Source: Cyanophora paradoxa CCMP329 (taxonomy: Eukaryota; Plantae; Glaucophyta). From it: a stretch of 37,519 nt of DNA. The DNA lies in the NCBI GenBank assembly GCA_004431415.1, contig QPMI01000403.1:1-37519 (forward strand), written 5' to 3'. Every line of letters starts with the position of its first letter. Position 1 is the stretch's first letter. Under the pieces are notes generated by a model. That model was given only the letters and a program-made list of their open reading frames with translations. It was not told the origin of the DNA and made no database searches. Positions 120-28,947 of the stretch are shown piece by piece. The position numbers and the translations under genes are program-made.

Positions 120-2656
120 CGAACTTTAATATTCGGCAACTGCTTTCCTACCGCGCCGTGGCACTCGCACGCACCCATAGTCTTCCCAAACTCGAAGTGA
201 GGAGTCTCTCGGCATTAATCTCGACAAAGTCATCCTCACCAGGCGCCTTGACCAGCCTGCGTTCAATGTTGTTGAGACGCGTGGCTCACGGACAGCAGTT
301 CGCTATCTTGCACGTGCATGTGCATACATATACATGCACGTGACTCACCAGCCGGCCTTCTCGTTTTCCGGATAGGGGAGATTACCACCCATAGCGAATT
401 CTATTGGTGTTGAAACGTTTCGTGTCGCAGTGAAGACGCCTTTGTCGCATATGACTGGGATTGACCATGATCGCATTTAGGATTACCGTTGAGCATAATT
501 ACAAATTATATAGTCTGGTTTCAATATCCCGCTCACCTCGGACATCGGCCACAAAAGCGCCAGCCGGCTCCACTTCGTAAGCATCGACGTCGTAGGACCG
601 TGAGCCCTGATTATTGAACATCGATCGTGTCAGTCATGGTCGGACGCTTCGGAACAATGCAAAACAATTGCGTGTGCGTGCCTGGTAAAATCCGTCCGAG
701 TGGAATACAACGAGCAGCTCGGCTCCCGTAGTCGGCATGGCCGCAAGGGGGGGGTAGGTCGTGGTGCCCCATCCAAGTCCCGATCGGGGATAGCTCGGAT
801 GGGAGGGCAGCTGCCTGGTAGAAGTTGGCGTGACCTCAAAAACCTACACGTGCACTCGCGATGTCAGGAATCGTATCGGCGCATTATAATAACCGTCCTC
901 CACGCACAAACATGGCGTCGCAGAAGCAGAGTTCGCCATCGAGTTTCGAGCCAGCGGAGGGAGAGAGTGGAGCGGGCTCCGCATCCAGACTCGATCAACC
1001 TAGACACATTTGGCATCTTTGCGTACCTGAAAGACCACAATGAGATCAACTCGAATTGGGAAGAACGAATATACATAGCCGAACGAGCTCGCGCGATCGG
1101 GAATGTCATCGGTCGCACCAAGCTCCCATGAAGTCGCCAGAGTAATTTTTGATTCCTATTTCGGCGGGTGCTCCGATGTCTGGGTGTAAAGTACCAGATG
1201 TAAAGTTCCGAGTTTCCCGGGTTGAGGTCAGAGTCGCGGGGCTTGACGGCGTCACTGCGCACAAAATCGAAATCGAGCCATTTTTATATATTTAATTAGC
1301 TATAGCCTGGCGTGAGATCTCATGATCAGACGCACCACTTGTCTTTGCCTTCGAACTGTACTCGGCGGTAAATATAGCTCCGCGTTGACGTGGTTCCTCG
1401 CTTCTAACGCAGCAGAGTGGAAGTCGTCGCCGGGGTACCAGGCGAAAAGGAACAACCGGCTCGACTCGCTTGTGTAAGTGGTCCCCGCGACCACCGAGTC
1501 CGCGAGGAGCCTCGGCGGATTGACGCCGTAGTCGATCAACTGTCATCGGTATCGGAAATATGAATATTAACTCATACACGACGTCCATATCTTCAGCGAC
1601 TTGCATGCGTGTGCACCTTTAGGGAGTTCGCGGTCGGCTCGGAGGCGTTGAACTTGACCGATGTGAACGTGATTTGAACGCTTTCCGAGTCCGACGGGGC
1701 GTAGAAGTTCCTGAGGGGCTCGCGGCGTTAGCTGTGATGATTAATTTTTACAGAGAGGGCTGATATAAGTGGTTCGGGGACACGCCAGCCGGCCACTTCG
1801 TTGAAAGGCCCGCCGTTGTGCACTCCCTTGATTGTCTGTGTCGTTGATGTCGCTGCCACCGCCCCCGGAAGAGTCCCGCACACCGCTGCGCGCGTTTTAA
1901 TTTAGGACGAAAAGAAATCCAGAGCAAAAACTGATCGTGAGTGCGTGCTCTCACCCGAAACACTTGCGCGGAAAGCGCCGCCCGGCACCGGGTCCGCCGC
2001 ATCGGCAGTTCCCTTACTGCCTTGATTCTGGTGTTGAGTGGAAGATGGCGACAAGCTCGCCCCAGGTGTCGCGGTGAATGCAGGGAAATTTACGGCTGAC
2101 AATCTGAGCAGCAAATAATGAAATCATAAAAAGATTTAAGAATTAAAACCTTTGTGTCAAGCAAATTTAAAGTGAGCGCACGTAGGCTTGCCCCAGCCAA
2201 CCCCAGATTTCGGGTAAGGGGTCTCGTGTGCGACAAAGCGAACGGAGCTGCTCGTAATCTCGAAAACCTAACGACAACGCGGGTCAAGCGATGCCGAAGC
2301 GCAGATTTTGAAACGGTAGCCGACGGTCAAGAAGCACTGGTAGATCAAGTACACGCACATACATCACATCGAACCATCCGCTTGCCTGGCCATCGATCTC
2401 GAGCCACGTGTGTTTCAAGCTGCAGCTCGAGTCCTCCGCAGGCAGCGAGACGCGCCTGAAAAACATTTATAGCTTGTGTGCGCGATCAAAAACGTTTTGC
2501 AATTGAAACTTGTGCACCACGCGTGCATCTGGTAGGCGGTGTAGGGTTTCAGCGCGATGTCAACAGGTCCTCCTGGGAACGGGCTGAGAGATAACGAGTT
2601 GAATATCCGAGTCTGCCCCGAACTCGAACTCAGGGTCGCGGCGTCGGACGCAGTCG
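120..2656 (-). CDS. Host multi-exon gene, 3' part (continues across the viral insertion)
   Basis: The same repeat-unit peptides resume after the acceptor at 2657-2658 (TASDAATL..KPYTAYQMHAWC, WLEIDGQASGWFDV, NFPAFTATPGA, DYGVNPPRLLA..GTTYTSESSRLFLF); exons below ~1300 are less certain. Confidence 0.58.
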
Positions 2657-2686
2657 CTGCGTGCGCGCGACGCATGCGGCTCATGA

Positions 2687-2692
2687 TCAGCG
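2687..2692 (+). repeat. Left target-site duplication TCAGCG
   Basis: TCAGCG immediately precedes the left TIR and recurs immediately after the right TIR; 6-bp TSDs are typical of Polinton RVE integrases. Confidence 0.9.
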
Positions 2693-2765
2693 ACACATAT
2701 GAATATTCATATTTTAATCCCTCGGCGTTCCGCCTCAGGATTAAAATATGAATATTCATATGTGT
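2693..2765. other. Left terminal hairpin palindrome (28-bp perfect stem, 17-nt GC-rich loop)
   Basis: ACACATATGAATATTCATATTTTAATCC (2693-2720) pairs with GGATTAAAATATGAATATTCATATGTGT (2738-2765); loop CTCGGCGTTCCGCCTCA contains a GGCG-TTC-CGCC mini-stem. Confidence 0.92.
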
Positions 2766-3515
2766 GATTCGATGTTATATCAATAAAATCGATTAATTTA
2801 TTTGAATTTTCATATGAATTTTCATATTTTTATATGCATTTTCAATTTATTTAATCGATGTTATATCGATAAACTCGATTAATCGATATTGTATCTTAAT
2901 TGTAGTTAATCGGAATTATATCAATAACTTCGATTGATCTTAATTGAATCCTAAATGAATTTAATCGGAATTATATCAATAAATTCGATTAAATCATGTT
3001 CTTTCCGATTAAATCAATTAAATATTTAACTTTGTTACCATAAGTGGTCTAAGTTGACTCACTTTCATAAACATTTTGAACTCTTAGTCTCCTTGAATTT
3101 CTTAAGATGACTCAACTTAGTCAACTTAGTCAACTTTGTTACCATAATCAATCAGGGTGGACTCACTTTTAGATCAACTTTGAAATTTCAAGCAAAAATC
3201 AACTTTGATTTCAAAAGTGGATCTTCTAAGTGGACTCAAAATGTTCACTTTGTGATACATGTTTGCTATAATCCTTACTGTTTATGGTCAGGGTTGACTA
3301 AGTGGGGGGAGTTGACACATTTTTTGAAATCCTTTTTAGAAAACTTTTGGTCCCAAATATTTCCTGTGAAATTTGAGTCAACTCAACCCACTTAGTCAAC
3401 CCTTGCATTGAATTCGTAACAAAATCCATATACTATTACTACTTTTACGATTAATATGAGTCAACCTTGAGTCCACTTTAATATAAATATTATATAATAG
3501 GGGGAATCAAGGGGA
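2693..3515 (+). repeat. Left terminal inverted repeat (~820 bp)
   Basis: 2693-~3065 is the near-perfect reverse complement of ~28568-28941; ~3349-3515 matches ~28388-28554 with a few mismatches; ~3066-3348 has no counterpart on the right. Confidence 0.92.
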
Positions 3516-3711
3516 ATGTTGAGTTTTACTGTAATGAAATCGAATAGTATTCGAAATCTTACATTTGTAGGTTTAGGATGCATTCATATTTTGGCTACAT
3601 CATACAGTAGAATTCTATTGTAAACAATGTCCGGAATCCGGAAAATAATCATTGTAGAAAGCTATTGTAATAAAAAAGATAAATTACCCTGTTTATCATT
3701 ATAGAAACCCA

Positions 3712-4110
3712 TTAAAACGGGAATCTATCATGTTTATGTCTCTCAGTCTTCTCAAATGTGAGGAAATTCATTGTTTTATCGATCTCATCTGCTACTGATT
3801 GTGTTTTATGCTGAGCTTCTTTACCACAACTGAATATATCAATTGCTAACATGCCTTCATTGGAATAACAATGAGCTGTACAATGGCTTTCATCTAATAG
3901 CAGAACCAAAGCAAAACCAGGAGGTGATAGTTTGCCATCAAATATCTCACAGTGTTTATGAACAATCCTAATGCCTTGTCTTAATACTGCTTGTTCAAGG
4001 GTTCCCATAATCCAATTACCTAGGAAGCTTACATGCTCATGTCCTGTTGCAATAGCTGATTTAGCCTTGTAATCAAGCATAACATGAAAGCCTCTGTATT
4101 TAGTCTCCAT
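3712..4110 (-). CDS. speD: S-adenosylmethionine decarboxylase proenzyme (prokaryotic class 1B, SpeD/SpeH-like)
   Basis: 132 aa; G-x-H-V-M-L-D N-terminus, SPPG, LLDESHCTAH with the E-S-H autocleavage/pyruvoyl site, and DIFSCG. Confidence 0.88.
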   Translation of the reverse strand: METKYRGFHVMLDYKAKSAIATGHEHVSFLGNWIMGTLEQAVLRQGIRIVHKHCEIFDGKLSPPGFALVLLLDESHCTAHCYSNEGMLAIDIFSCGKEAQHKTQSVADEIDKTMNFLTFEKTERHKHDRFPF

Positions 4111-4133
4111 TAAGAATACCTTAGAAAAATTAA

Positions 4134-4403
4134 CTAGTCAAACCTAATGCAAATATCCCTATACTCTACTCTGATTGATGAAGTAGCCCTTTTCCTGTGT
4201 GCTTGACTCTTTCTTTTGTTACAGTCCCTACACCTGATCCTTCACATGATTAAAGGATATGTTAGGATCACCTTGTTACATTGCAAACATCTAACAGATA
4301 CTTTCTCTTGAGCTTTGATGTAATGTGTCTCACTGTAATCGAATTTATCTTTACCATGAACTGTCATAGCAGCATCAATAAACTTTTTTGTTTTACTATC
4401 CAT
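4134..4403 (-). CDS. Small DUF723-like Zn-binding/DNA-binding protein (~90 aa; frameshifted, absent from the ORF track)
   Basis: Manual translation MDSKTKKFIDAAMTVHGKDKFDYSETHYIKAQEKVSVRCLQCNKVILTYP..NHV.GSGCRDCNKRK; needs three single-base restorations at ~4233-4254; ATG lies 3 nt after the upstream stop. Confidence 0.62.
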
Positions 4404-4406
4404 ACT

Positions 4407-5258
4407 CTATATATAACCAATATTCTTATGGAGCAGTATCCTGCCCAAAATGGGGAAATATCGATTTGTCCCATAGTATTCAGCATAGGTATTCTGCTTT
4501 GCAATAAAATCGGTTCTCTCAGCATATAATACACACTTGTAGATACCAAACTTGGTGGCTCTAACCAGGAACTGGTAATCTTCTAAACCGAAATTGACTC
4601 CATGATAAGCAATACCAAAATTATCATATGGGGTGATCACAACTGCAAAATTAGGAGTTCCACCCTCTACTTGACAAAGAGCATAAACATCTGGTGGGAT
4701 ATCCACAACTACCTTGTAGTGGTCACCAATTTCAACAAGAGAGTCTACTACTGCTGTTTGTTCATTTACAACAATGGGGAATATCTTTATAATGTATGGG
4801 GCATTCATGCTGGGGACATAGGTTCGAATTCTTGTATTGGGATCAATGGGATTGGGTTGATCATTCACAAATAAAGGCGCTCCAACAGCCCCACCAACCC
4901 TAAGACCATCACCAATATAAGCTCCCCCCGATTTGCAGTTAATAGCTCCCGACCTAGATTCAAAAGAATAAGTAGACAGAGGATCTCCATAGCTATCTGG
5001 GTCTCCATAATGAGCAGAAAAGTTTGCATTTGTGACAAGTAGCTTAGTTGTCTTAACTATTCCATTATTTTTATCACATCTGAGTTCCTGTAATCTCAGC
5101 TTGTGGGTGGAACCAAATGTATTCATTGTAGGTTGGACCTCTGTGGATTGGAGACCCTCAACATCATCAAAGGTAGCATGCTGCAGAACATGGTTTGCTG
5201 GTGCAGCTAATGATAGCTGAGGTGTAATAATTCGTTCAAGTGGGGGTTGCTCAGCCAT
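4407..5258 (-). CDS. Hypothetical virion/fibre-associated protein (paralog A, 283 aa)
   Basis: Long ORF; fibre-like GGAYIGDGLRVGG segment; clear paralogy to 5260-6125 (ELRCDKNNGIVKTTKLLVTNANF vs ELRADKNSGVVKTTRLLVTNANF). Confidence 0.75.
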   Translation of the reverse strand: MAEQPPLERIITPQLSLAAPANHVLQHATFDDVEGLQSTEVQPTMNTFGSTHKLRLQELRCDKNNGIVKTTKLLVTNANFSAHYGDPDSYGDPLSTYSFESRSGAINCKSGGAYIGDGLRVGGAVGAPLFVNDQPNPIDPNTRIRTYVPSMNAPYIIKIFPIVVNEQTAVVDSLVEIGDHYKVVVDIPPDVYALCQVEGGTPNFAVVITPYDNFGIAYHGVNFGLEDYQFLVRATKFGIYKCVLYAERTDFIAKQNTYAEYYGTNRYFPILGRILLHKNIGYI

Positions 5259-5259
5259 T

Positions 5260-6125
5260 TTACATTAAAGGGATATATCTTTTATGGGTTGGGTCATCAA
5301 TAATATCTGGTTCCGAATAAAACCCTGTAACTGAAAGAGTATCAGGAGTTACACCTCTAAGAGCTGATACAGCGGCTATATCTGTTCTCAAACCGATAAG
5401 AGTTATAGTATATAACCCAATATCTGTAACAAACAAGTCAAAGGTGAAATTATTATTATAAACACAGTAGCCATAACCGAAATGATTATATCCCTGAACA
5501 TTGAAATAGTATTTATGACCTACTTGATTGTTGTTGGCTCTACAAAGGGAAAGCATTGCAGATGGAATCGCAAGACCTCTCAGTACTCTTTTGGTTCCTT
5601 CAATTAATTCCGAGTTTTCAAGAGTAACAGTATATCCAATGTAAAATTGAATTAATGGCTGCTGTGCGACAGGAGTATATAATCGAATTCGTTGGGGTCT
5701 TCCACATTTTGCTCTAGAGTATCTGGGACATCATTATACGAAATGGAGGATGAAAGCTGACCTGAAACTCTGCAACCTCCACCAATAAATGCTCCTCCTG
5801 ATCTCACAGTAACAGCAGCAGAATTCTTATCGAAATCAAGGGCTTTCAGATCAACACTGTAAGCATCTGGACCTCCATTAGTAGGTTGGAAGAAGTTTGC
5901 ATTAGTCACAAGAAGTCGAGTGGTTTTAACCACACCTGAATTCTTATCAGCTCTCAGCTCTTTAACTCGAATAATCGAATTTTTATCAAAGGAGTTACCA
6001 TTGGAGTTGGGTCTCTCTGTGGATTCTAAACCACGAACCTCATCATTTACTTCATGCTGGCGAAAATGCATTGCAGGGGATCCAAGGGAATATATAGGCA
6101 GTTGCACACGATTATATTCGCCCAT
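5260..6125 (-). CDS. Hypothetical virion/fibre-associated protein (paralog B, ~288 aa; one frameshift at ~5694-5697)
   Basis: ORFs 5652-6125 and 5260-5556 join if one C is added to a CCCC run, giving DPQRIRLYTP, which matches paralog A DPNTRIRTYVP; GLRTD matches AERTD near the C-terminus. Confidence 0.72.
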
Positions 6126-6165: not shown

Positions 6166-9100
6166 TTATGCTACCATCTTTCCTGTTGCAATATAACTCA
6201 TTTGATAGTGGAAAAGTCCAATGCTTTCATTAAATGCAGAATTTGCCGAAATTGTTGCATGAATAGTAAATGTTGTTGTTGTGGAACTTGTGACACCATA
6301 TACCAATACATATGAACCACCATTATACCCTTGTTTAAGATTGAGAACCACTTCTGGGGCTGCCGCAAATGCTTTTGGGAATGTGACAACCTGTGGAAAT
6401 CCCCAATGACCTGGACCTGTGATTGTTAAAGATTTTGAGAAACTCCCTGTTTGAATATACTGGTCTTTATTGACCCGTTGTTCTGAAACAAGTTTTGCAA
6501 TCTTTGTATTATCTGTTTCATCCATTGCATAATATGCTCTTGCGTAAGCATTTCCCCGACATAATAACGTTTTATCGTAAATATTTGCGGAATTGTGGAA
6601 AAACCATTGTTCTAAATAAAGAGGTGCATTCGGTTGGTAAATTTGACCGGATCCCACATACATGGTATTGTTGGCTGTAATTGTGTTACCTGTGATCGTA
6701 TTGGCTACAAACGGGTCTAAGGTTGGGAAATCTGTGATCTCCGATTTTGTGTGAGTATGGGCAAAATCTGTTATATCGGTCTTTGAATGACTGTGTGCGC
6801 CAACTGTGTTAGTAGCTGTTGGTTTTCCATAGATATTATCCCAATGGAGATAACCGCTATTTCCTGACGAAGCTGGGTTTTTGCTCCAACCAATAATACC
6901 AAGTAAGTATATTCTTCCTAAAACACCTTGAACACCAATTTTGTGAACATCTCGCAATTTACAGCAACATATAGCCTGAATGTATTTAAGTTGTATGATT
7001 GTGCATATGCATTTACTCGCATTGTGGTTTGAAAACCTTCATTTATATTAAACCCTTTAATGTCAAAATATCGACAGTTGAAGTGCGCTATATAAAAAAT
7101 GTAGCATGTTTTCATTCCTGTTGGAATATCCCAATACATGTAGCTATTACATACTAAATCATTTTGAGCTGCTGTGTATGCTCCCGTGTAGTAACTTATA
7201 TATGATTCATTTGTCCAATCAGCGGATTTCAAAAAATAATCGCCAAGAACACTTATAGCATCAAAGTCAGTAGGAGTAGAGAATGTTGGTTTATTAATTA
7301 AATCATCATAATTTCCACTTGTTGCAACAGTAGCAAATGTTGGTTTGTCTGTGATCTCCGCCCATAAATGAGAGTGGGCGAAATTTGTTATTTGATCTCT
7401 TGTGTGAGTATGGGCGAAATCTGAAATCTCATCTTTTGTGTGAAGATGTGCAAATCGGGTATCTGTAATCGTGAATGTGTGTGGTCAAAATCTGTTATTT
7501 GTGATTTTGTGTGAGTGTGTATGGGCATGTGCAAGTTGCTAAGAGTTAATCTGTCTTTTCCTACAATATTAAGAGTTTCCCGAGTTAAGATTGGTTGAGT
7601 ATTTGGGAAGCCATACATTTGTTGAATATAATACCTCACATCACGTTTTTCATCATTTGTCAATGCTCTGTTGAATACTATAATTTCAGCAATACTACCT
7701 CCAACAATTTGTCCAAATCCAAAAAGTTTACTATGGAATCAGGTAAATAGTTAGTCCCTGTAACAGTTTGGATATCTACACCATTCAAACCTACCGAATA
7801 AGAATCAGAAGTGATTGTTTGGTCTATGTAATACCATTTATTGATCAAAGAGGGAACTGTGATAGAAGGGGTTGGTTGTTGGACTCCCTCTATTGCAAAA
7901 CTTGTCATTCCAATTATTGTATTCGACTTAACACCAAACTGAACACTTCTGTTTGATAAATCTGTCTTCCATATTCGTAAATGATGATCAACAACAGAGG
8001 ATGTTTGGTGGTATTTACCTATTACAAAGTATGTGAGTCCTGATGACCAATCAATTGTTACATTTGGATAGGAAAATGCGGACATACTGGTTCCGGAAGG
8101 AGTTGTTATAGTGAATTGGTTGTTGATTGCTGCATTTGATGTAAAATACGAACTGGTTCCCGAACCCACGTTAATTGATGGAATCAAAGAATTTGGGACT
8201 CTATTAAAAAGATTGGAAGTGGCTGCCGATTCACCATGAACACCTGATGCTTTCCATGCAAAAAGACAATTCGGAATTTGTGAAGCTGGGTCACTGCTTG
8301 CTGTAACTCTATAATACGTTTCACTGAAAGATTCTAAATAGCTATTGGTTCCCATTTTAATCTTTCCACCCACAGTAAGGTTGCTTGTCACCACCAAGTT
8401 GCTGGCGATGGTTCCACCTTTGAGAGGGAGGTAATTTGATAGTGCTAAGTTAAGTTCAGGTTCAGTCACATATACATCAAGTTCTGGTTTTGTCACGTAG
8501 TTTTCGAGGATATTTGCAAGTTCTGTATCATCTACATAATTTTTGCTTTCAAGGTAATCATCTGTTACAACACCCGAAAGGGTTTCATTGTGTAAGTTTT
8601 TCGCCGCCATTCTCTGATTGACTTCTAAGGCGCCACCTGTTGTTGTTTTGATCCACGCCATCTCACATTTCCCGAAATCATCTTTTGGTTGTCCTGCAAG
8701 AGGTGCGTAATTGAATTTGGAGCGACTAAATATTATTTTCGGTCTTGATCCATCGGTTGCGCTTACATCTGTAACATTCACTTGTAAGATGGCGTCTTTA
8801 TCATCATAACTCACAGGATCTAATGGAAGTGGTGGTAAACCTGCTGTTAATGGGATATCATCATTATAATAACTTGTCAAAAAGATTCCTGGTTTGGTGT
8901 CTATAACCCCCACCCCACCTGCTGAAACCATTTGTATCCTCGAAGGTTGTTTAATATATAGTTCGCCATCCATAGTGGTTCCCGCATCTATTCCTTTGCG
9001 ATTCAGGTAATATTCACTTAATTGTAATCTTTCAGCGATGGTATCACTTTGGTAGAAACTGACCCCATAAAATCCATCACCATTTACTAAATCGCCTGTT

Positions 9101-12100: not shown

Positions 12101-12471
12101 CCTGTGTTCTGTTTGCCCTGCTCATCTTGAACATTGAAAATCAATCGACCACTATCGAACCTAGAAGGTATATCTGGGTGAGTGCCACTGGTTTTGAGTT
12201 TCCTAGGTCTCCTTCTTGTTGCTTTGATCTCTGCTACTTGGTTGGCTTTCACATTACCCAAACTAAAAGCAACACTGACATCCTCTTTATCTGGATCGGT
12301 TTGATTCACAGATAAAGCATGCTCCCTTGATTGAGTCTTGGATGAATTATCGGAGCTGTGGTCGATTGAAACTGAACCCTTTACTTTAATGTTATCAAAG
12401 TTCACATGCTTGGTGCTGCTTGCATTATCATCTTGAATTGTTTCTAGATTTGGTGGGTAATTGAAGCTCAT
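6166..12471 (-). CDS. Giant fibre/spike protein (~2100 aa reconstructed from ORF pieces 7678-12471, 7388-7663, 6918-7232 and 6166-6957)
   Basis: Phage-fibre-type HTHTKDQITDFA and HxHxWxEIxxKP repeats, YLPLxGGT motifs, ATVATSGNYDDLINKP, two LamG/ConA-like modules (EVIVFNRALT), C-terminal H-type-lectin/gp53-like domain (VTFPKAFAAAPEVV); three single-base restorations (~7723, ~7453, ~6985) join the pieces. Confidence 0.8.
9232..9385 (-). repeat. 36-bp tandem coding repeat (HTHTKDQITDFA, about 4 copies) in the fibre gene
   Basis: Near-identical units such as aaatctgtgatctgatctttggtgtgagtatgggc; related units near 7380-7530 and 6730-6800. Confidence 0.85.
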
Positions 12472-16085: not shown

Positions 16086-17452
16086 ATGGATATCACTTCC
16101 ACTCTTCAAAGACTTTCGCTGAAAGAAGCCCTAACAACCCCAGAGGAGGCGAAAGCCTTTTTCCTGGATAACTCCCTTATGCTTGGACTCGAATCCAAGT
16201 CTAAGCCAGTTCTAGTTGTTGTGAATCCAGCAATACTTTTGAGAATAATGTTGGAAATCGCATTTCCTTCAAGCTACCTCGCTACAATTTCTGTGGAAAA
16301 CTCGAACTTGCTTTCGACCTACCAGAAATCACTTTTGCTGGTGAAGATCTAGTTCGCAATGGATACACTCGCCCAGTTGGTGCTTTAGTTCAGCGACTTG
16401 AAATTACCTATGGATCTTACACCTACCACATCCCTTCTGATTTCCTTGCTCATTTCCCCCTGGTCTATTATTCGGAGGATCAACTAGCTAAAAAGAAACG
16501 CTCAATGGGCATGGTTCATGGTATCCCTGCTCATGGAACCAACCGACTTGGTGGCTCATTTTTCGTTGAAATCCCAGTGCCTTGGCTAAATCACTATCTT
16601 CCCCTTGGTGCTTTATCTGGTGAAATGGTTGTTACTGTTTGGTTTAAGGATGCTGGAAAGGGTTATGTTGAAACTTCCTATGGTGGTCGCTCTCTCCCTG
16701 TTGTTGGTGGGACAGCTGCTGATAAGACAGAAGATGATGGTCTTGGTGATACTGCTAATGCTACACTTGCCCATGTTGGTCAAAACATCACCACTTTCAG
16801 TCTTGGTGCAACAACCCCTGCTATTTCAATTACTTCTCCTCGCCTTTACATGCATGCTATTAATGTTTCTGATGAGCTTTTCGCTACTGTAATTGAAAAA
16901 GTAAAGACAACTGGCATGGCTATTCCCTCCCTTGATATTGGATTTGTAGATGCCATTGCTTTTGCTGCCAAGGGCAATGCCCAGCCCAATCGAATTAACC
17001 TCTCTCAAATCTCAGGTCTTGTCTATGCTCTGCTTGTTTCAGTTCGTGATTATGAGACTGTTGACAAATCCAATGGCTCCCACAGTGTTCTTAAGACCTA
17101 TGCCAACTCCAAAGAGATAACATTCACTGTGGAAATAAATGGTCAGCGACTTTTTGCCACTGAGCCAATTTCCCTACTCAAAGGTGCTGAGCTAATTGCT
17201 GATGCATTCAAATGCTCTAACATGGATAAGGTTGCTGATCGCTATGTCCTTTCGGGTATGAGTTTCTGCCTTAATGGAGAAAATGCGATTCGAAATATCG
17301 CTCAAAGTGGCTTTGTCGACCTGACAAATTCCTCATCTTCATTCCTCACACTCTACATGCCCACAGATAAGACAATCAATGTTCAAGTTCGCGCTTTAAT
17401 GCATAGTTTCCTCATTATAGACGGTTCAGGTGTTCGTAGAATCAATTTATAG
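16086..17452 (+). CDS. Double jelly-roll major capsid protein (~455 aa; one frameshift near 16215-16230)
   Basis: Joining frames gives NRISFKLPRY...ALVQRLEITYG...FFVEIPVPW...YLPLGAL..EMVVTVWF...VEINGQRLF...GFVDLTN...VRALMHSFLIIDG, the usual DJR motif order; lies between penton and ATPase. Confidence 0.8.
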
Positions 17453-17511: not shown

Positions 17512-18243
17512 ATGCAAGATTTAGAAGAGTTTAATGTTTCTGAAATGATTAAAGGTGTTTTCAGAGCCATTTTTATAGGCAAAAGTTGTACGGGAAAAAG
17601 CGAATGTGTAAAGTATTGGTTAAAGCAATTACATGATGCCAAAGTTATTGATGTTGTCCTAGTTGTGAGTGGGACCAGCTTTAATCATTTCTGGAGAGAG
17701 GTTGCAACAGTAGAACTTGGTAAATGGGATGCTGGTTACATTTCAAAGCTTTTGGATGAAAGGCAGGAGAAAATCGAAAAAGGTGAACCTGTGAACCACA
17801 TGTGTGTTGTTTTAGATGATTTAATTGATAATGAGATAATTGATTTAACAAGAGACAAGGTGGTGTCATCTCTGTACAGTAGGGGCAGACATTCGAAAAT
17901 ATCCATTATCTGCATTACACAGAAACTCAGAAAAGTCTCTTCCACTATTCGAGTTAATTCTGATTATGCTGTTTTCCTGAGTGCTGCTAATCGCAAAGAA
18001 CTTGAAGCCATAGAGGAAGAATACAATATAATGCGAAACAAGGAGGACTTTTACAAAATGTTTGAAGAATATGTCCACTCCTATCAGTATATCGTTTGGT
18101 CCTCTGCTGGCTACTCAGTTAAATACTTTGTAGATAAAGCTGAGCTTGTCAAAGACTTCCCATTTCCTCGCTTCCACAGAAAGCCAAAAAAGAAAGAAGA
18201 TGAACTGAAACCACCAGAGAAAGAGGAAGCCCCAAAGAAGTGA
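17512..18243 (+). CDS. A32/FtsK-HerA-like genome packaging ATPase
   Basis: Walker A GKSCTGKS, Walker B VVLDD, A32 signature RGRHSKISIICITQ, IRVNSDY. Confidence 0.93.
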   Translation: MQDLEEFNVSEMIKGVFRAIFIGKSCTGKSECVKYWLKQLHDAKVIDVVLVVSGTSFNHFWREVATVELGKWDAGYISKLLDERQEKIEKGEPVNHMCVVLDDLIDNEIIDLTRDKVVSSLYSRGRHSKISIICITQKLRKVSSTIRVNSDYAVFLSAANRKELEAIEEEYNIMRNKEDFYKMFEEYVHSYQYIVWSSAGYSVKYFVDKAELVKDFPFPRFHRKPKKKEDELKPPEKEEAPKK

Positions 18244-19580: not shown

Positions 19581-19732
19581 GATAATTGAGAAAAAGCGGT
19601 CTCAGTATGCCACTGAGGCAGCTATAAAAGTTTACAGACAGGAACTGGTGTTCGCAACAAAAAATGACTTAAGGAAAAAGTAGATAGATTGTATTGAGGA
19701 AAAATTATTTTCGTATCTACTATTAAAGAGAA

Positions 19733-20059
19733 ATGCCGAATATCCGCAAGATACTCACAGATGATGAAAAAGCAGAGAAGCTGAGACTGAAAAGGGAGCA
19801 AGATGCCCAAAGAAAACGCGAAGCCTATCATAAAAAGAAGCAGGAACGATTATCCCAAGGAGCCGCTACAGTTCACACACCAGAAGAACTCAAAAAGATT
19901 GCCCTCAGACACCAGAGGAAATACAGGGAAAATGAAGAATATCGCGAGCAAAAAAAGGCAAAAGCGCTGGAATATTACCACAAGAAGAAAGATGAACAGC
20001 CCAAGAAACCCAAAGAGCATAAACCGGTTGGAAGACCTCGAAAATATATCGAAGAATAA
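19733..20059 (+). CDS. Small Lys/Arg-rich protein with AT-hook-like GRPRK motif
   Basis: QRKYRENEEYREQKKAKALEYYHKKK...KPVGRPRKY; upstream TATCT..TATTAAAG motif. Confidence 0.72.
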   Translation: MPNIRKILTDDEKAEKLRLKREQDAQRKREAYHKKKQERLSQGAATVHTPEELKKIALRHQRKYRENEEYREQKKAKALEYYHKKKDEQPKKPKEHKPVGRPRKYIEE

Positions 20060-20276
20060 ATTCTCGATCGAAACAAATTTTGTAGAAATCGATTTGATCG
20101 GAGGCAAAAAAATGACAGCTTTCTTCCCTCTTTTTTAAAACTGTACCTATATATCGAGACAGTATCCCGACCCAAAACTACTTAAGGACTTGGCAAATAA
20201 TAGGATATATATAAAAGACAATTCCTCCTTCCGAAATTATTTTCTTCGTTAAAGGTAGAAGTCCCCAAAATCGAAA

Positions 20277-22871
20277 ATGAACAAAATCGAGAAATTCGCC
20301 ACCCCTGTTGAAAATGCTACATTCCTTAGTACTCTCATTGGTGATCGCAACAAGGTCACCCATGTATTTGATTCTGCCGAAGATGCCCTTGAAGCCATTG
20401 ATAATAGCAAGGTTAAGACCTGGGCTGAATGCATTCAACCTGAGCAAGTGACCAGAGTTTACCTGGACCTGGATAAATTCGCTGATTTGAAGGAGAACAT
20501 TGCTGATAACTATGCTGAGGCGGAAACTGTTGTAAGAGAGATGAGAGATAAGCTATGGAAGCGATCTGGTACCACTTCTATTAACGATATTGCTGTTGCA
20601 GTTCGCCATAGAAGGGTTTATTTGATTAAGGAGGATGTCACCAAGTTCAAGATTTCAGCCCACTTTATTATTAAATCGCTTGCATGCAAACATGAAGATA
20701 TCCCCAAGCTTTTCAAAGCGATGGGATTGGTGAAAAATGAGGATTATGACAGTGGAGTTTACAGCTCCACACAGAACCTAATCTGCCTCAATTGCTGCAA
20801 AGGTGAGACTCTGGATGCTCAAAATAAGTCGAAAAAAGATGTTGATAAAAACGTTTGCTTTAAGAAATTCGTTGACTGTGACAAAGTGTTAATGCGAAAT
20901 GAGGACTTCTTTGTATCTTACTTCTCAGCTACTACTAAACTTGTGGATGAATCGAATATTTCTGCATTCGCAAATTATAGCCCTGAGCCAAAACCAGTTA
21001 AAAAGGAGCCAAAAAGTGATAAAGTGAAGACTGAGAAGGTAGAAGCTGAAAAAGACACTGAACCCGAAAATCCTGTTACTTTCGAACTGCTACAAAGTGT
21101 TATAATGGGTCTGAATGGTGAGAGAGCTAATGAGTATAAAACTTGGATTGATGTAGGACTGGTCATCATCAATGTTGGGGAAGACAACAAGTTCACCCCT
21201 AAAATGCAAGCTGAACTCTTCCACCAATTCTCAGAACAGAGTGACAAGTATGATTATGATGAATGCCAGGAGAAGTTTACACAGCTTCGCAGAAGCAAGA
21301 AGAAGGCTGAGCCTGGCAAAGTGTTGACCTTCAAATCCTTGGTTTATTGGTTGAGCAAAGATAACAATGAGCTTTTCAAGGAACTCTTCCCCAAAAAGTA
21401 TGCATTCCTACCAGAGGACACAGATGAAATCGATTACAAGACTGCAAGTATCCCTCCTTTGGCTGAACATTACAATGTGCATAAGAGGTATTTCAATGCT
21501 CGAATGCATCATGTTGAAAATGTTGGTTGTGTGATGCTCTGGGATGAACAACTACTTTGCTGGATGCCCAAAGATATTGGGAAGCTCTCTACAAAGCATT
21601 TCCCCCACTTGATGCATAAGGTGATTGTGAATGAGGGGACAGATAATGAGAAAGAGAAATGGGAGCAATCATTTAGGAAATGGATTGTGGATCCAACAGC
21701 CACAAGATCAACTTACATGGATTTCCTTCCCCCTCCTGCTACTCTCAGTGCAAAATGCAAGTCTGTATTTAATCTCTATCCAGGAATGAAGGTCGACCAT
21801 CAGCAATTCGAAAATGCTCCAGAGGATGTAACTGCTGAGATGATTAAGCCTTTCCTAGATCACTTGTTCTTAATGTCTGGTGAGGATCAAAATACCTATG
21901 AATATCTGTTGAAATGGTTTGCCCACATGCTGCAAAAGCCTGGGGAACTCAATGGAGTATCCTTAATCTTCATTGGTGAGCAGGGAACTGGTAAAAATGT
22001 GTTGGTTGATACTTTCCAAAAGAAGATACTTGGAGATGCCCTAAGTTATGCAACTGGAAAGCCAAAAGAGGATCTGTTTGGTCGATTTGCCCACAATAGA
22101 GAGGATAAGATCTTGATTGTTGTGAATGAAGCCTCAGGCAAGGACACATTCGAAAATAATGATATGCTCAAAGATCTCATAACTTCTGATAAGATTGTAA
22201 TTGAACACAAAGGGATAGATTCATACACAAAAAGCAACTTTGCCAGGATTATATTCACCAGCAATAACAACATTCCAGTGAAAATTGAAGCTGGAGATAG
22301 GCGATTTGTGGTTGTTGAAGTTAGTAAGAAATTCGCAAAGGATAGGTCATACTTCCTTCCACTTGTAAAATGGCTAAATGATCACTGCAATATTCGAAAC
22401 ATTGCCCACTATTTGAGAACCAAAGTTGACTGTGAGGATGTGAACTGGATTGCTGATAGACCCCTTACAAATAAATACTATTTAGCCCAACAGGTGTGCG
22501 CTCCAATCATTCTTATGTTCACTAAGTGGCTTGTGGATCGAGGCTTAATTTCCGAGAATAAATGCAAGTCTGGTAGCCTTGTGGAAACCTGGAAGTGGTT
22601 CCAGGAGTTTATTACCAGCAATAAATATAAAAACGATTATAATAGTCGCCGATATTATACTGAAATGAGAAGTGTTACATATATCCAAGTGAAAACTACA
22701 AATGGCAAACAATACTATCATTTCCTATTCCCACAAGTATTTGAGGAATTCAGAAAGATGAAGCTTGTAGATGATGAGACTATTGAGGAAGAAGCTAATC
22801 CAAGGATGAAACAGGCCCTACCTGCTGCTGATCCTGATGCATCAGATTATGATTCTGATGTTGAAGTTTAG
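20277..22871 (+). CDS. Primase-helicase: AEP primase + PriCT-2 + SF3 (D5-like) helicase
   Basis: AEP motifs VYLDLD, SAHFII and DSGVY; PriCT-2 YKTWIDVG..FHQFSEQSDKYD; Walker A GEQGTGKN, Walker B VVNEA, motif C FTSNN, DRRF arginine finger. Confidence 0.92.
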   Translation: MNKIEKFATPVENATFLSTLIGDRNKVTHVFDSAEDALEAIDNSKVKTWAECIQPEQVTRVYLDLDKFADLKENIADNYAEAETVVREMRDKLWKRSGTTSINDIAVAVRHRRVYLIKEDVTKFKISAHFIIKSLACKHEDIPKLFKAMGLVKNEDYDSGVYSSTQNLICLNCCKGETLDAQNKSKKDVDKNVCFKKFVDCDKVLMRNEDFFVSYFSATTKLVDESNISAFANYSPEPKPVKKEPKSDKVKTEKVEAEKDTEPENPVTFELLQSVIMGLNGERANEYKTWIDVGLVIINVGEDNKFTPKMQAELFHQFSEQSDKYDYDECQEKFTQLRRSKKKAEPGKVLTFKSLVYWLSKDNNELFKELFPKKYAFLPEDTDEIDYKTASIPPLAEHYNVHKRYFNARMHHVENVGCVMLWDEQLLCWMPKDIGKLSTKHFPHLMHKVIVNEGTDNEKEKWEQSFRKWIVDPTATRSTYMDFLPPPATLSAKCKSVFNLYPGMKVDHQQFENAPEDVTAEMIKPFLDHLFLMSGEDQNTYEYLLKWFAHMLQKPGELNGVSLIFIGEQGTGKNVLVDTFQKKILGDALSYATGKPKEDLFGRFAHNREDKILIVVNEASGKDTFENNDMLKDLITSDKIVIEHKGIDSYTKSNFARIIFTSNNNIPVKIEAGDRRFVVVEVSKKFAKDRSYFLPLVKWLNDHCNIRNIAHYLRTKVDCEDVNWIADRPLTNKYYLAQQVCAPIILMFTKWLVDRGLISENKCKSGSLVETWKWFQEFITSNKYKNDYNSRRYYTEMRSVTYIQVKTTNGKQYYHFLFPQVFEEFRKMKLVDDETIEEEANPRMKQALPAADPDASDYDSDVEV

Positions 22872-23063
22872 GTTTACTCAAAAGTGGACTCATGGTTGAC
22901 TCAAATTTATCATAAAAGACCCAAACAGTCTTTTATTTACGGTTTATTTATCGATTAGGTTGACTAAGTGGGGGGAGTTGACTCATTTTTTCACAGATTC
23001 TAAAAAAGGACTCTGCCCTAAAAAGAAATAAAAAGTGCCTCAACTCCACCCACTAAGTCAACC
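22872..23063. promoter_or_regulatory. Internal copy of the TIR motif cassette (inverted GGTTGACTAAGTGGG...CCCACTAAGTCAACC pair plus GACTCA motifs); candidate origin or regulatory site
   Basis: 22958-22990 nearly matches 3292-3324; 23041-23063 resembles 3379-3401; AAGTGGACTCA.GGTTGACTCA at ~22882-22903 matches the right TIR at ~28425-28446. Confidence 0.7.
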
Positions 23064-23114
23064 AAAAAATGATTTAAGAGATAGAAAAATATATTTATAT
23101 GTAAGTAGTAAGAA

Positions 23115-23465
23115 ATGGCTGGAACAGATCATGATTCTGGATCGATCTATATGATTGAGAGTGAAGAATTGAATAAAGTTTATATAGGGAGAACCTCACA
23201 GCCACTACAAAAAAGATGGAGACAACACAAATCAGGTCAAATGCCATCAACAGCAGACCTATGCAAGGCTTCGGATGTGAGGTTTTCAGTCCTTTATTCA
23301 ACTAAGAAGGGTGGGCATGAAGACCTTATGAACAGAGAAGCATATTACATGTATCTCTTTGAACCTTGGATAGTCAATCTACAAAAACCGAAATCTCGAT
23401 TTAGGATTAATAGGTTTTTGCGATTTCATTCAGAGGAAGCCAATGGATCCATTAAAACATTTTAA
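23115..23465 (+). CDS. GIY-YIG endonuclease
   Basis: SIYMIE...VYIGRT...LQKRWRQH...REAYY...VN pattern. Confidence 0.88.
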   Translation: MAGTDHDSGSIYMIESEELNKVYIGRTSQPLQKRWRQHKSGQMPSTADLCKASDVRFSVLYSTKKGGHEDLMNREAYYMYLFEPWIVNLQKPKSRFRINRFLRFHSEEANGSIKTF

Positions 23466-23525
23466 ATTGCGTTTAGAACATCCTAAAATAAAATATCCCC
23501 TTAGAATAGGAACAAGTTAGGAATA

Positions 23526-26500
23526 ATGCCCCGAATTACCAACAAACTCATAAGGGAGAAGAAATGGGAACTCATGGGATTGCTGGGAACACTATATGCA
23601 GCCCATGAAATAACAGAGGATGAATATGACCGGGAAATAGATTTAATTGCAAGGGGCAGACCCACTTTAAGCAGATTAACCAGAAAAGCAAATAACCTAT
23701 ATGATAAAATTGAAACCTTGGATGAACTGGATAGGCTTAGGCAAATAGAACCAGAGGCAGAAGATGGAACAGCCATGAATGAATTATATCGCTGGCTCAC
23801 ATACAGAGCCAGAAGGGAAGTTGTTGTAGATGTGATTGAATTCCTGGATAGAATTGCTACATCCCTTCCAAATCGATTAAAGCAGGGTTTAGATCAATTC
23901 AGGGCAATCAAGGTTCGCTTGTCTTTTATCTGCAAGTTCGTTAAAGTGAGCAATCCACAGGTTTGGATATCGAAATACATTTACAGTGATTACTTTGTAT
24001 TAACCAGGTCGAGAAATATTCGAACTGAGCTGAATAAAGCAGCCCAAATGTGTCAGGAGCAGATGAATGTGGTTGATAGCTATCGCTTAGAAAGAATTGA
24101 AATACTCAGAGTGGCTATTATGAGTTATGCTCCAACTGGTGGATGCTTTCTACAAACCCCAGAGTGGATTGCTAGGAAGAGAGCCACAGTGAATATTCGA
24201 AATATAGATGATTCCTGCTTCGAAAATGCGATTTTAGCCTCGATTTACAGAAAATCTATTAACTCCAATAAGAGGAATGAGCTTTCACAATATCGCAAAT
24301 GGAAATACTCAGCAATCGCTTATAATCCGCTGGCTCTCAATTTCGACAATATCCCATTCCCTGTTGCCTGTGATGCTGAAATAATTGATAAATTCGAGGC
24401 TCAAAATGCAGGCATTAGCATTAATATATTCGGAATCGATGGAGAGGTTGTTTATCCCTGCATCAATCCAGTAACCCAGGCAGAAAGCATAAGGTTAATC
24501 TCATGCTGATATTTGATGATGAAGGGAATGGTCACTATATTACAATCATGTCCCTTTCAAGGCTATTGAAAGTAAACCATGAAACATACAATGATCAGAA
24601 GTTACACTACTGTGATACATGCTTATCTCGATTCAGGTCTGAGGCTAAACTCACTGCTCATGTGGACTCAAACAGATGCATTGATTGGAGACTCTCAAAG
24701 GGAATCACCCCTAAACCTGAGACCACCATAGAGTTTGGACTGAAAAACCTCAGGAAAACTGTGTGGCTTCCTGTTGTGGTTTACTGCAAGATTGAACATA
24801 GAAGCATCCCCATTGATGCATCGAAATCCAAGAGGGAAGTCTCAGCAGTGAACCTTAGAGTAGTCACTGGGGAAGATGTTCAAGATTTTCGATTTGAGGG
24901 TCAGGATCCAATGGGAGGTCTCTTTGAATGCTTGGAGTCCAAAGCAAGAGAACTAATCGATTTCCTGTTTACCAATATTCCCATGAATGAACTCACAGAT
25001 GAGCAGAAAGCTGTATATAGGGCTACCAAACACTGTTACCTTTGCAGTGAGAGGTTCACCAAGGAGAACTTTAAATGCAGGGATCATGATCATCACACAG
25101 GTAATTATATTGCTCCTGCATGCAGAAACTGCAATCTCCATAGGAGAATCTCAAAGCAAACCAAAGTTGCAGTTGTTGTTGACCAAATGGATGACTGTGG
25201 GACATTCATTTTCAGAAAAATAGCAGGTATGGGTGATAAAAAGCGAATCGAAATCCTTTCGAAAAACTTTGATCAATACCTTTCATTGCAATGGGGTCTT
25301 TACAAGTTCATTGATGCAAGCAATTTTATGGACTTTGGAGCTGCTGATGTAGATGAGTTAATGAACAAATTCCAAGCCTTCAGAAGGCTTTCACACTCAG
25401 TATATGGACTTGACCCAGTTCATTATGTATCTGCACCTGGGTTATCTTGGGATGCTATGCTTAGGACCACCGAGGCAAAAATAGAGCTTATAAGTGATGT
25501 AGAGCAATACGAATTTGTTGAGAGGGGAATCAGGGGTGGCTTTGCAACAATGCCTTGTAGGTATGCTGAGGCTGATGGTGAGAACTCCCACATTATGCTG
25601 TTTGATGCTAACAACTTGTATGGCTACTGTTTGAGTCAGCCAATTCCAGTTGGTGATTTTAGATGGGAGACCGAATTCAACCCACAAGATAACAGATCCA
25701 GTTTCCTGGAAGTTGATCTGGATTACCCAATTAGGCTGTTTCTAGATCACAGTGATTTCCCTCTAATTATTAACAAGAAAATAGTAGAATATGCCGAATT
25801 ATCACAATATCAAAAAAGCCTATTGGATCTCTCAGGAGAAGAGCTTGATAAAACCCCTAAGCTAACTGCAACCTTTGGTTCTGTGACCAACTATGTAGTT
25901 TCTGAGCCTCTTCTACAATACATGTTAGCTAAAGGTGTGAAACTAAAGAAGGTTCACAGGGTCCTATCATTTACTGTGGCTCCTGTAATGAAACCCTACA
26001 TTGAGCTGAATACTGATATGAGAAGGAAAGCAGTGAATAAATTCGAGGCTGATTTCTATAAGCTCATGAATAATTCAATCTATGGGAAATGCATTGAATC
26101 ATGTAGAGGTCGATCTGTGGTTAAGATTGCCAACACTGAGAAGCTATTTATGAAATATGCAGCTTCCCCATTGGTGAAATCAACAAGTCCCATAAGTGAA
26201 AGGGCAGTTGCCTTTGAGTTTTACACAAAGCATGTGAAGCTAGATAAGCCTGTTGCAATTGGGGCTTATGTTTTGGATGCAGCCAAACTGCATAACTACA
26301 AGTTCTTCTATGATACTGTAAGGTCCCAGTGGTCAAAAGCAAAGTTACTATTCCATGATACTGATTCCTTTTGTCTATATATTGAATCTAAAACCCTTCA
26401 AAAGGACCTAGAGAATATATCCTTTAATCTGGACTTAGGAGGACCTAACAGAATGACCCCAGGTAAATACAAAAATGAGATGCCAGGTTCTGCTATATTG

Positions 26501-26770
26501 GAGTATGTAGGTCTGAGAGCCAAAGTTTACTGTTTCAGAACAGCTGAGATTGAGAGAAGTAAGCTATCTGGGACTTCCACTGAGGAACTCCAATTCAATG
26601 ATTTTAAGCAGTGTTTATTTGCAGGTATCAGCAAGACTGTGACTGCAAAGCAGAAAAGAAGGGCAGATCACACAATAATAGACACTGTGAGTAGAAGGGT
26701 TGCCCTAAACTGCTTTGATGCAAAGAGATACATCTTACCAGATGGTATTAATTCTGTTCCTTTTAATTAA
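23526..26770 (+). CDS. polB: Polinton-type (protein-primed family) DNA polymerase B polyprotein (~1081 aa; one frameshift at ~24456-24458)
   Basis: Adding one C joins 23526-24509 and 24503-26770 (VYPLHQS..HKVNLML..GHYITIMSLSRL); VNIRNIDDSCF (vOTU-like), CxxC..RDHDHHTG..CRNCNL (endonuclease VII-like), motif A DANNLYG, motif B KLMNNSIYGK, motif C DTDS, GLRAKVY. Confidence 0.93.
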
Positions 26771-26773
26771 GAG

Positions 26774-28159
26774 ATGCCAGCAACTGGAAGAATAGTTAGG
26801 AGAACCACTGAGCAACTGCAAGGAAACCTACTGCCTATCACAGTTCCCAAGGAGGAAAAAGGGGAATCTCGAATTGTTAAAAAGTCTGAGATGAAAGAGC
26901 TTGTCCCAGTAGAGATCCCAGTTGCTATTGCAGTGAAAGAAACTAGCAAGATTGCCAAGAGATTCTATGATGTGAGAACAGGTTACAAAGGGCTTCAAGC
27001 TATGAGGGCTGAGTTACCAGATGAATCCTATAAGCAGTTGCAAGAGTTCTATAAAAAGCAGGAAGTTGTTCAGATCAATGCACCTGCTATATCTAGGAAG
27101 AGAGATCCCATGGTTCCAATAAGGCAACCCCTTGATACCTATGTGATTGATTTGCTCTTTTTCCCAGCTTATAAGAAACAAAACAATGGCTATGATACAT
27201 TTATGACTGCAATGGAATCAACACTGAGAACTGGATATATCATACCTATAAGGGATAAATCAGCTCTCACTACATTAGCTGCATTTAAACAGCTTGAGAT
27301 GAGAGTAGCAAGACCCATAGTAAAAGTTCAATCAGATGCTGGGAGTGAATTCCAAAATCGAATATTCCAGGAGTATTTATCTAGTAAATACATAGAACAC
27401 CAAGTGAGTGGAACTGCAGACCATAGGAGCCAAGGTCGAATTGAAGCCTTTAACAAGCAGATTAAGAGACTGATCACAAACTACTGCATAGCTAATAACA
27501 CAGCTAGATTCTTTGATGTGTTGGGTGATATTGAATATAATTACAATAACACAGTTCACTCAGCTACTAAGATGAAGCCAGGTGAAACTACAGAGGAGCA
27601 TTATAGGTATATAGTGGGATTAGAAGATGAAAGATTCAAGAAATCAATAGCTTATCTTGATACCATGCAGCCTGGCATGTTTGTTAGAGTGAAAGTAGAG
27701 AAGAACCCCTTTGCTAAACAGGGTAACAATTGGTCTAGGATGGTTTACACTGTTGATAGTAGAGAAGGCTTTAAGTTTAAGCTAAGGAGTCCCACTGGAG
27801 AGATCATAGATAACAGATTTGCATTCCATGAGCTGTTGCCTGTGAATGCAGTTGAGTATCTGGAAACACCCACAGTGGATGCCTTAGAGCAAGCTAAAGA
27901 GGAAGCTAGGGTTGATGCTTCTATAAGGAGAGAGGGCATAGAAGCTGCTAATGAAGTCCCAGATAAGCCTTTGATAGAGGCTAGAAAGGAGAAGGCTGGC
28001 AAAGTTAACAGGGAACTCAAAAAGCTCACTATAGCAGGCACACAGAAACTTTCAGAAGTGAATAGCCAGAGATGGTATAATGACTTTCAGACTACTAAGG
28101 AGTCATATACAGCCCCTAAACCTCAAAGAACACTAAGAGAAAGGACCAAAACTAGCTAG
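26774..28159 (+). CDS. int: Retroviral-like (RVE) DDE integrase
   Basis: VIDLL (D), QSDAGSEF (D), QGRIEAFNKQIK (E), YNNTVHSATKMKP, SH3-like PGMFVRV...NWS; consistent with the 6-bp TSD. Confidence 0.93.
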   Translation: MPATGRIVRRTTEQLQGNLLPITVPKEEKGESRIVKKSEMKELVPVEIPVAIAVKETSKIAKRFYDVRTGYKGLQAMRAELPDESYKQLQEFYKKQEVVQINAPAISRKRDPMVPIRQPLDTYVIDLLFFPAYKKQNNGYDTFMTAMESTLRTGYIIPIRDKSALTTLAAFKQLEMRVARPIVKVQSDAGSEFQNRIFQEYLSSKYIEHQVSGTADHRSQGRIEAFNKQIKRLITNYCIANNTARFFDVLGDIEYNYNNTVHSATKMKPGETTEEHYRYIVGLEDERFKKSIAYLDTMQPGMFVRVKVEKNPFAKQGNNWSRMVYTVDSREGFKFKLRSPTGEIIDNRFAFHELLPVNAVEYLETPTVDALEQAKEEARVDASIRREGIEAANEVPDKPLIEARKEKAGKVNRELKKLTIAGTQKLSEVNSQRWYNDFQTTKESYTAPKPQRTLRERTKTS

Positions 28160-28387: not shown

Positions 28388-28941
28388 TCCCCTTCATTCC
28401 CCCTATTATTTTATATTTATATTTAAGTGGACTCAAGGTTGACTCATATTAATCGTAAAAGTAGTAAAAGTATATGGAATTTGTTACGAATTTAATGCAA
28501 GGGTTGACTAAGTGGGTTGAGTTGACTCAAATTTCACAGGAAATATTTGGGACCTGAAGGTTTATAAAAAGTGAGTCAACTTAGACCACTTATGGTAACA
28601 AAGTTAAATATTTAATTGATTTAATCGGAAAAGAACATGATTTAATCGAATTTATTGATATAATTCCGATTAAATTCATTTAGGATTCAATTAAGATCAA
28701 TCGAAGTTATTGATATAATTCCGATTAACTACAATTAAGATACAATATCGATTAATCGAGTTTATCGATATAACATCGATTAAATAAATTGAAAATGCAT
28801 ATAAAAATATGAAAATTCATATGAAAATTCAAATAAATTAATCGATTTTATTGATATAACATCGAATCACACATATGAATATTCATATTTTAATCCTGAG
28901 GCGGAACGCCGAGGGATTAAAATATGAATATTCATATGTGT
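28388..28941 (-). repeat. Right terminal inverted repeat (~555 bp)
   Basis: Reverse complement of the left TIR, lacking an internal ~280-bp segment. Confidence 0.92.
28869..28941. other. Right terminal hairpin palindrome
   Basis: Exact reverse complement of 2693-2765. Confidence 0.92.
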
Positions 28942-28947
28942 TCAGCG
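28942..28947 (+). repeat. Right target-site duplication TCAGCG
   Basis: Identical to 2687-2692 and directly abuts the element end ...CATATGTGT. Confidence 0.9.

Follow-up and report, generated by a model that had tools for sequence, protein, structure and literature searches.

Two open questions are touched by the element described here: how viruses with linear genomes went from protein-capped ends, as in tectiviruses, adenoviruses, and Polintons, to hairpin ends with a primase-helicase, as in poxvirus-like viruses, and how Polintons leave the chromosome. Poxviruses and ASFV have AT-rich hairpin telomeres together with a D5/C962R primase-helicase; their ends are covalently closed and occur as both isomers, and they are not known to integrate through an rve integrase with target-site duplications (TSDs). 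In endogenous virophages of Halocafeteria seosinensis (subtypes 1, 2, 5, and 6) and a Polinton-like virus (PLV) of subtype 4, terminal palindromes lie beside the TSD, and the accessible text of the 2026 preprint that describes them proposes hairpin priming and places such tips preferentially with replicases other than pPolB (bioRxiv 10.64898/2026.07.28.741278). Mavericks are known to carry an AC-type end motif, (AC)3A in Monopterus albus, that the available part of PMC8097293 ties to jump-back priming, and their other terminal repeats include (AG)3 and (AGT)2. For pPolB, the accessible portion of PMC11161782 gives likeness to the Y-family little finger as the hallmark of the terminal-protein (TP) domain, with a Gly or Pro near every linking residue. 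Palindromes and a terminal protein are combined in the archetypal telomeres of Streptomyces, where Tap-Tpg patches the ends (bioRxiv 10.1101/2025.10.14.682034, open text).

Against this background, a hairpin at the tip is not in itself new, since both the terminal palindromes beside the TSD and the hairpin-priming model are already in the accessible text of the 2026 Halocafeteria preprint. What appears to be new is that palindromic tips stand here on an element with a pPolB of Polinton type, although a Halocafeteria subtype may also combine the two; further new points are the shortened predicted priming loop of that polymerase and a first count, an indirect one, of how the hairpin loop is oriented. 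It is also unusual that a pPolB with a TP fold and vOTU dyad is kept beside an AEP primase-helicase, though its predicted priming loop is shortened and its proofreading motifs are gone. In the literature searched, which is without most subscription titles and the papers that first described Polintons, palindromic tips in this virus group were found in that preprint only; the available texts of PMC12220804, PMC8502044, and PMC6431247 contain nothing on them.

The window, i.e., the whole 37,519-nucleotide stretch of Cyanophora paradoxa CCMP329 DNA analyzed here, contains an element of 26,249 bp (2693-28941) with 39% GC in host DNA of 54 to 55% GC (Table 1). Among duplication lengths of 2 to 13, the 6-mer TCAGCG was the sole one found, and it places the first base of the element at 2693; a 10-bp TSD reading (TCAGCGACAC) was rejected because it would render the ends asymmetric. 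Within 28942-28951, the host bases that follow the duplication are ACAC, equal to the first four of the element, by chance or by target preference. The host DNA around the insertion forms an array whose related units are spaced by about 1.4 kb (1444-2407 and 29070-32104), and the host flank ORFs gave no Pfam match; a perfect direct repeat of at least 145 bp (34442-34586 and 37375-37519, 2933 bp apart) reaches the end of the window. The TIR comprises about 373 near-perfect bp and a 184-bp block at 94%. About 270 bp of the left TIR region (3066-3331) are absent between the two right-hand blocks. Three letters (2813, 2848, 2961, and their mirrors) are common to both TIRs and differ from all contigs shown, which suggests that the two ends of one genome were copied from each other.

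Table 1. Features of the element and its borders, in window coordinates
Feature	Positions	Strand	Remarks
TSD TCAGCG, left copy	2687..2692		6 bp; empty site in contigs carries one copy
Left terminal hairpin	2693..2765	+	arm 2693-2720, loop 2721-2737, arm 2738-2765
Left TIR, first block	2693..3065	+	counterpart 28568-28941 with a single 1-base indel; includes a 55-bp tandem unit at 2861-2992
16-bp palindrome, outer arm of left hairpin	2697..2712	no strand	mirror copy 2746-2761
Two degenerate 16-mer copies, just inside hairpin	2800..2827		2800 with 2 mismatches, 2812 with 1; mirrored at 28807 and 28819
Left TIR, second block	3332..3515	+	94% with 28388-28571
S-adenosylmethionine decarboxylase-like gene	3712..4110	-	Pfam PF02675, E 3.9e-11
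Major capsid protein gene	16086..17452	+	first ~40 codons in another frame in this copy
A32-like packaging ATPase	17512..18243	+	Pfam PF04665, E 2.7e-12
AEP primase - PriCT-2 - SF3 helicase (D5/C962R-like)	20277..22871	+	864-aa open frame; N-terminal AEP by Atlas features 0.96
GIY-YIG endonuclease	23115..23465	+	Pfam PF01541, E 1.2e-10
pPolB, N-terminal part	23526..24509	+	TP domain ~residues 84-204, Ser185 in predicted linking loop, vOTU Cys231
pPolB, C-terminal part, other frame in this copy	24503..26770	+	vOTU His; polymerase motifs A, B, C; no exonuclease motifs
rve (retroviral-type) integrase	26774..28159	+	D126, D188, E224 invariant among 4 aligned sequences
Right terminal hairpin	28869..28941	-	exact mirror of left hairpin
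TSD TCAGCG, right copy	28942..28947		6 bp

By its gene set, the element resembles Polintons/Mavericks in having a pPolB (PF03175, E 5.7e-13) with motifs A, B, and C, an rve integrase with its DDE residues, long TIRs, and a 6-bp TSD, and it departs from them in that its pPolB has no proofreading exonuclease. It also belongs to the PLVs in the broad sense, with its ATPase, candidate capsid gene, TIRs, and a length within 14 to 40 kb. The capsid was recognized by Atlas features (0.96-0.98), with Capsid_NCLDV on 13 to 18% of members, and a double jelly-roll is a lead and no proof; in the 90% library its sole homologue comes from Cyanophora paradoxa (57%), which makes a protist or algal host likely. 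Polinton-type viruses are mentioned for Cyanophora paradoxa in the available text of PMC8502044. In this copy, the reading frame shifts once within the pPolB gene and once within the capsid gene, and the closest relative of this pPolB, P0001, is one 1083-aa frame; these shifts may be assembly errors, because single bases in T runs set the window apart from all contigs. Pfam searches on 19 scanned ORFs found no HUH Rep and no adenovirus-like maturation protease; since several ORFs have no Pfam match, a divergent maturation protease is possible. An Endo VII-like zinc domain scored 21 bits, below the Pfam cutoff of 23.6. About 640 residues are duplicated within a 1597-aa fiber-like ORF (7678-12471), which also contains 12-residue repeats and matches LamG weakly. 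Blocks of the subterminal motif GTTGACT/AGTCAAC recur inside the element (22881-23063), upstream of the GIY-YIG, pPolB, and integrase genes, and are likely promoter or binding sites.

Each end of the element is a hairpin. The left one has a perfect 28-bp stem starting at 2693 and a 17-nt loop, CTCGGCGTTCCGCCTCA, and both hairpins hold the nested 16-bp palindrome ATATGAATATTCATAT in each arm (at 2697, 2746, 28873, and 28922); stem, loop, and palindromes, all described in an earlier note on this DNA, proved exact on remeasurement, and the right end is indeed the mirror of the left, the exact reverse complement of 2693-2765 standing at 28869-28941. Folding as DNA gives -29.5 kcal/mol (z = -14; 0 of 200 shuffles were equally good) and recovers the GGCG/CGCC mini-stem that had been seen in the loop. 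When the TIR was shuffled 200 times, the longest perfect stem was 13 bp, compared to the 28 bp observed. The loop, claimed to be the sole GC-rich patch, has 71% GC, and the best other 17-nt window in the first 373 bp reaches 47%. The nested palindrome is only moderately beyond chance, because 62 of 2000 whole-TIR shuffles yielded one of at least 16 bp (4 of 5000 for one-arm shuffles). There are two perfect and two degenerate copies of this dyad per end, and an Rfam search gave no match. The element opens with a dinucleotide repeat, ACAC; the tip reads ACACAT, i.e., two AC units, against the three of (AC)3A. The ends had been called unlike canonical Polinton termini, and this holds for the long terminal stem, which is not among the features described for vertebrate Mavericks, but is overstated for the ACAC start, which resembles their AC-type motif.

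We compared 24 public runs, all as contigs, and words of 19600-29500 were present at half or more in 14 of them. The left end was compared with runs X1 to X4 and the right end with X1, X2, X4, and X8. Arms and loop are covered in all four runs at about TIR depth (4071 versus 3746 in X1), and several host flanks meet the outer arm, which speaks for a real structure on the very point where the earlier note had feared an assembly fold-back. Contigs that join the left flank straight to 28942, with one TCAGCG and no hairpin, reveal the empty site in four of four runs and fix the boundaries of the element. The filled junction has 0.32 to 0.59 of the flank depth, as expected for a heterozygous insertion, in contigs with fewer than 31 letters on one side, short of the bridging rule. 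TIR depth divided by half the flank depth gives 42 to 96 ends, a rough figure, depth being no copy number; the element is multicopy, in an estimated tens of copies. Among 24 of the 26 loose-end rows, six other host junctions stand at the first base of the arm, some being placed 1 to 7 letters off by chance matches, and the seven loose-end flanks sought in the window gave no trusted match with fewer than three differences. Arms and loop are the same at nearly all ends; the inner TIR and genes differ among copies. One contig, in four of four runs, joins unrelated DNA exactly in the 3-nt tip of the mini-stem (28904-28906), as if the hairpin had opened there or been struck by an insertion.

The asymmetric loop is a built-in marker for protein priming versus fold-back priming, and the earlier note had suggested that it could flip between two orientations. 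Compared among copies in contigs, one orientation is shared by three linked ends (both window ends and X2 record 14), and the opposite one is found at a single junction, represented by X8 record 26 (1426 letters, depth 49.6) and by the same flank in X1, i.e., in two of four runs. This junction is precise to the first base of the arm; in the shared path, however, record 26 overshoots the limit of a strict 31-letter graph by 9 letters. In X4, which has no opposite-loop junction, one contig, record 19, spans 28868-28913 and is unbroken over 28869. Simulated graphs of 60 ends broke at 28869 in 0, 63, 86, 99, and 100 of 100 cases at 0, 2, 5, 10, and 50% flips, respectively; the simulation is error-free, rare forms may be missing from real contigs, and free genomes, having no flank, fall outside the argument. 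The X4 graph argument draws on 8 of the 66 X4 records, and the no-flip simulation predicts for record 19 a start one base before the observed 28868. Variant contigs of depth 4 to 30 persist beside paths of 2,400 to 5,900 in the same table, so contig pruning does not look harsh. The contig boundaries disfavor a 50:50 flip at inserted ends, and at almost every one of them the loop seems to be oriented the same way; what is left of the suggested flip is the one opposite-loop junction, which is either a lone-hairpin scar or a rare flip. The two hairpins, with their identical arms, are also direct repeats of each other, and a crossover between them would excise the virus with a single palindrome left behind, and would thereby account for this junction; one side of the scar would read like X8 record 26.

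The N-terminal part of pPolB is predicted to fold as a four-strand, two-helix TP domain (mean pLDDT 77.6; 91-96 for residues 100-200). Its best structural matches are Y-family little fingers (2r8j, Z 9.4, rmsd 2.8, 107 aligned; 4ir1, Z 8.3), with Z values that are only moderate, because residues 1-72 reach 8.4-8.5 with helical bundles. Helix 162-181 and strand 186-200 are joined by a loop that contains Ser185 and that is the linking site according to the available part of PMC11161782. For comparison, we used the best 120 of 1423 homologue matches, 100 of which are long enough and 89 of which cover the TP domain, possibly all from one clade. vOTU Cys231 aligns with Cys in 89 of those 100 homologues, and the His is kept. 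The predicted linking loop has 28 residues between anchors here and in P0001, compared to 32 in 86 of the 89; it has neither Gly nor Pro, as in only 2 of the 89; and where 68 of the 89 have GSG[WYF], this protein and P0001 have DSY. The Ser of GSGW would be the linking residue, to judge from the accessible text of PMC11161782. Exonuclease motifs I to III, present in 92, 107, and 98 of the best 120, respectively, are absent from this protein and P0001, with a gap of ~100 residues. Because the predicted priming loop is shortened, we retain self-priming as a possibility.

The explanation that we favor, tentatively, is that the hairpin is a fixed origin or end-recognition signal, with the tips copied from the first base by the TP polymerase and the hairpin not turned over. 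We infer each functional step as follows. The dyad array and the stem would be recognized by protein, the repeated 16-bp dyad by a dimeric one; the AEP primase-helicase would unwind or copy the bulk of the genome; pPolB, with its proofreading motifs lost, would start or patch the ends from ACAC by jump-back priming; the loop would never be turned over during copying; the integrase would then join the outer arm to host DNA; and a crossover between the two hairpins would release the virus, leaving a lone palindrome. The apparently single loop orientation at nearly all inserted ends makes it likely that the hairpin marks the start of copying and does not serve fold-back priming. The unbroken X4 contig and the lack of a HUH Rep among the 19 ORFs point the same way, as do the TP fold, kept with high confidence, Ser185 in the linking loop, the retained vOTU dyad, and the likeness of the ACAC tip to the Maverick AC-type motif. 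Several observations count against a fixed signal of this kind: the linking loop is 4 residues short, without Gly or Pro, and reads DSY and not GSG[WYF]; a second replicase is present that needs no terminal protein; X4 record 19 starts one base late, and there is one opposite-loop junction; and protein priming would face competition from a perfect stem in which base 1 is paired. The palindromic tips of Halocafeteria, which by the preprint's accessible text go preferentially with non-pPolB elements, count against it as well.

A close rival, and a realistic possibility, is a change from protein priming to fold-back priming. In this view the terminal protein would be decaying, the primase-helicase and a DNA-primed pPolB would copy the genome, and the ends would be finished through the hairpin; resolution would yield mainly one isomer, or only one isomer would integrate. 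At the left end of minute virus of mice, resolution reportedly yields mainly one loop isomer. The shortened, Gly-free linking loop common to P0001, the absence of exonuclease motifs kept by most of the 120 homologues, and the presence of an AEP-SF3 helicase all argue for such a replacement, as does the Halocafeteria association just mentioned; the opposite-loop junction and the junction broken at the hairpin tip are in keeping with it, and GIY-YIG and the subthreshold Endo VII-like domain are candidate nucleases. The terminal-protein fold, Ser185, and the vOTU dyad are nevertheless all kept, no HUH nickase was found among the 19 ORFs, and simple hairpin transfer would give independent flip/flop ends (PMC11575299, accessible text), unlike the contig in X4. 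Replication through head-to-tail circles was rejected, since it would produce direct, not mirrored, loops. A Polinton switching from protein priming to hairpin telomeres, its priming loop and proofreading lost and an AEP primase-helicase gained, with self-priming ends and paired hairpins through which the virus is set free, a lone palindrome remaining as a scar, is possible, though less likely than not.

It seems unlikely to us that the palindrome mainly serves integration or excision, with the inner arm as a second attachment site or with the hairpins, as direct repeats or cruciforms, releasing the virus. The hairpins do repeat each other directly and have identical arms, the opposite-loop junction falls exactly at the first base of the arm, the DDE integrase is intact, and no excision enzyme is known for Polinton-type viruses; however, this is a single junction where the ends are estimated in the tens, it is seen from one side without its TSD, and the empty site at the locus in the window has one TCAGCG and no hairpin. 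Quite improbable is a neutral by-product, in which a 3' end was copied after a single fold-back event and the copying of ends from one another has since carried the palindrome along. Accidental annealing is named as an alternative in the accessible text of the Halocafeteria preprint, and the arms are perfect, as after a recent event, but nearly all ends have these arms and this loop, in contrast to the inner TIR and genes, which differ from copy to copy, and palindromic tips recur in unrelated elements (bioRxiv 10.64898/2026.07.28.741278). An assembly fold-back artifact has next to no chance: the window's T-run differences from the contigs show that the assembly has some errors, but arms and loop are present at TIR depth in the contigs of four independent runs, several host flanks meet the outer arm, and public contigs also show the empty site and six further insertion junctions, so that it is refuted.

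Relatives with ends were sought in several ways. Scans of viral contigs with the integrase, pPolB, and capsid alignments singly yielded none, and a search with the hairpin arm pattern gave no match. The alignment searches returned 21 and 2 viral loci and 11 metagenome loci at 23 to 39% identity, and none of these 34 related loci shows a TIR with a TSD. One viral contig (L018, 1-9821) has a pPolB and a 505-bp TIR at both contig ends, which may be cut, and no long tip hairpin.

The element bears both toolkits, those of protein-capped and of hairpin ends, and it offers tens of copies, many public runs, and a heterozygous site with an empty allele. Like the Halocafeteria elements, it has a palindrome within the TIR adjoining the TSD; unlike them, for which the preprint's text indicates a preference for non-pPolB replicases, it has a Polinton-type pPolB with a TP fold together with an AEP-SF3 helicase, and the loop orientation, for which the accessible text of that preprint holds no test, was counted here from contigs. 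With Polintons and Mavericks, as far as the available texts describe them, it shares a pPolB, here with the TP fold and vOTU residues kept, an rve integrase, an A32 ATPase, and a capsid gene (PMC8097293, PMC11161782), as well as long TIRs and a 6-bp TSD, and its tip of two AC units is similar to their AC-type terminal repeat (PMC8097293); the 28-bp terminal stem, the shortened TP loop, the absence of exonuclease motifs, the extra AEP-SF3 helicase, and, by Pfam, the absence of a maturation protease set it apart from them. With the rolling-hairpin ITRs of AAV and parvoviruses, it has in common a terminal fold-back with an asymmetric inner part able to exist as flip and flop (PMC11575299, accessible text). 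In contrast to those viruses, it has no HUH Rep among the 19 ORFs scanned with Pfam, it has the gene set of a dsDNA virus, and its loop is not randomized among inserted ends, the contig boundaries giving no sign of flip and flop at similar rates. Poxviruses and ASFV resemble it in having a terminal hairpin rich in AT and a primase-helicase of its class, and differ in their closed ends and their two isomers and in not being known to integrate through an rve integrase with TSDs. The Streptomyces telomeres, in the open text on them, involve unrelated proteins and several short palindromes compared to the one long stem here, but they too combine palindromes from base 1 with a terminal protein while the bulk DNA is copied by another replicase, and so provide an analogy for the coexistence of the two systems.
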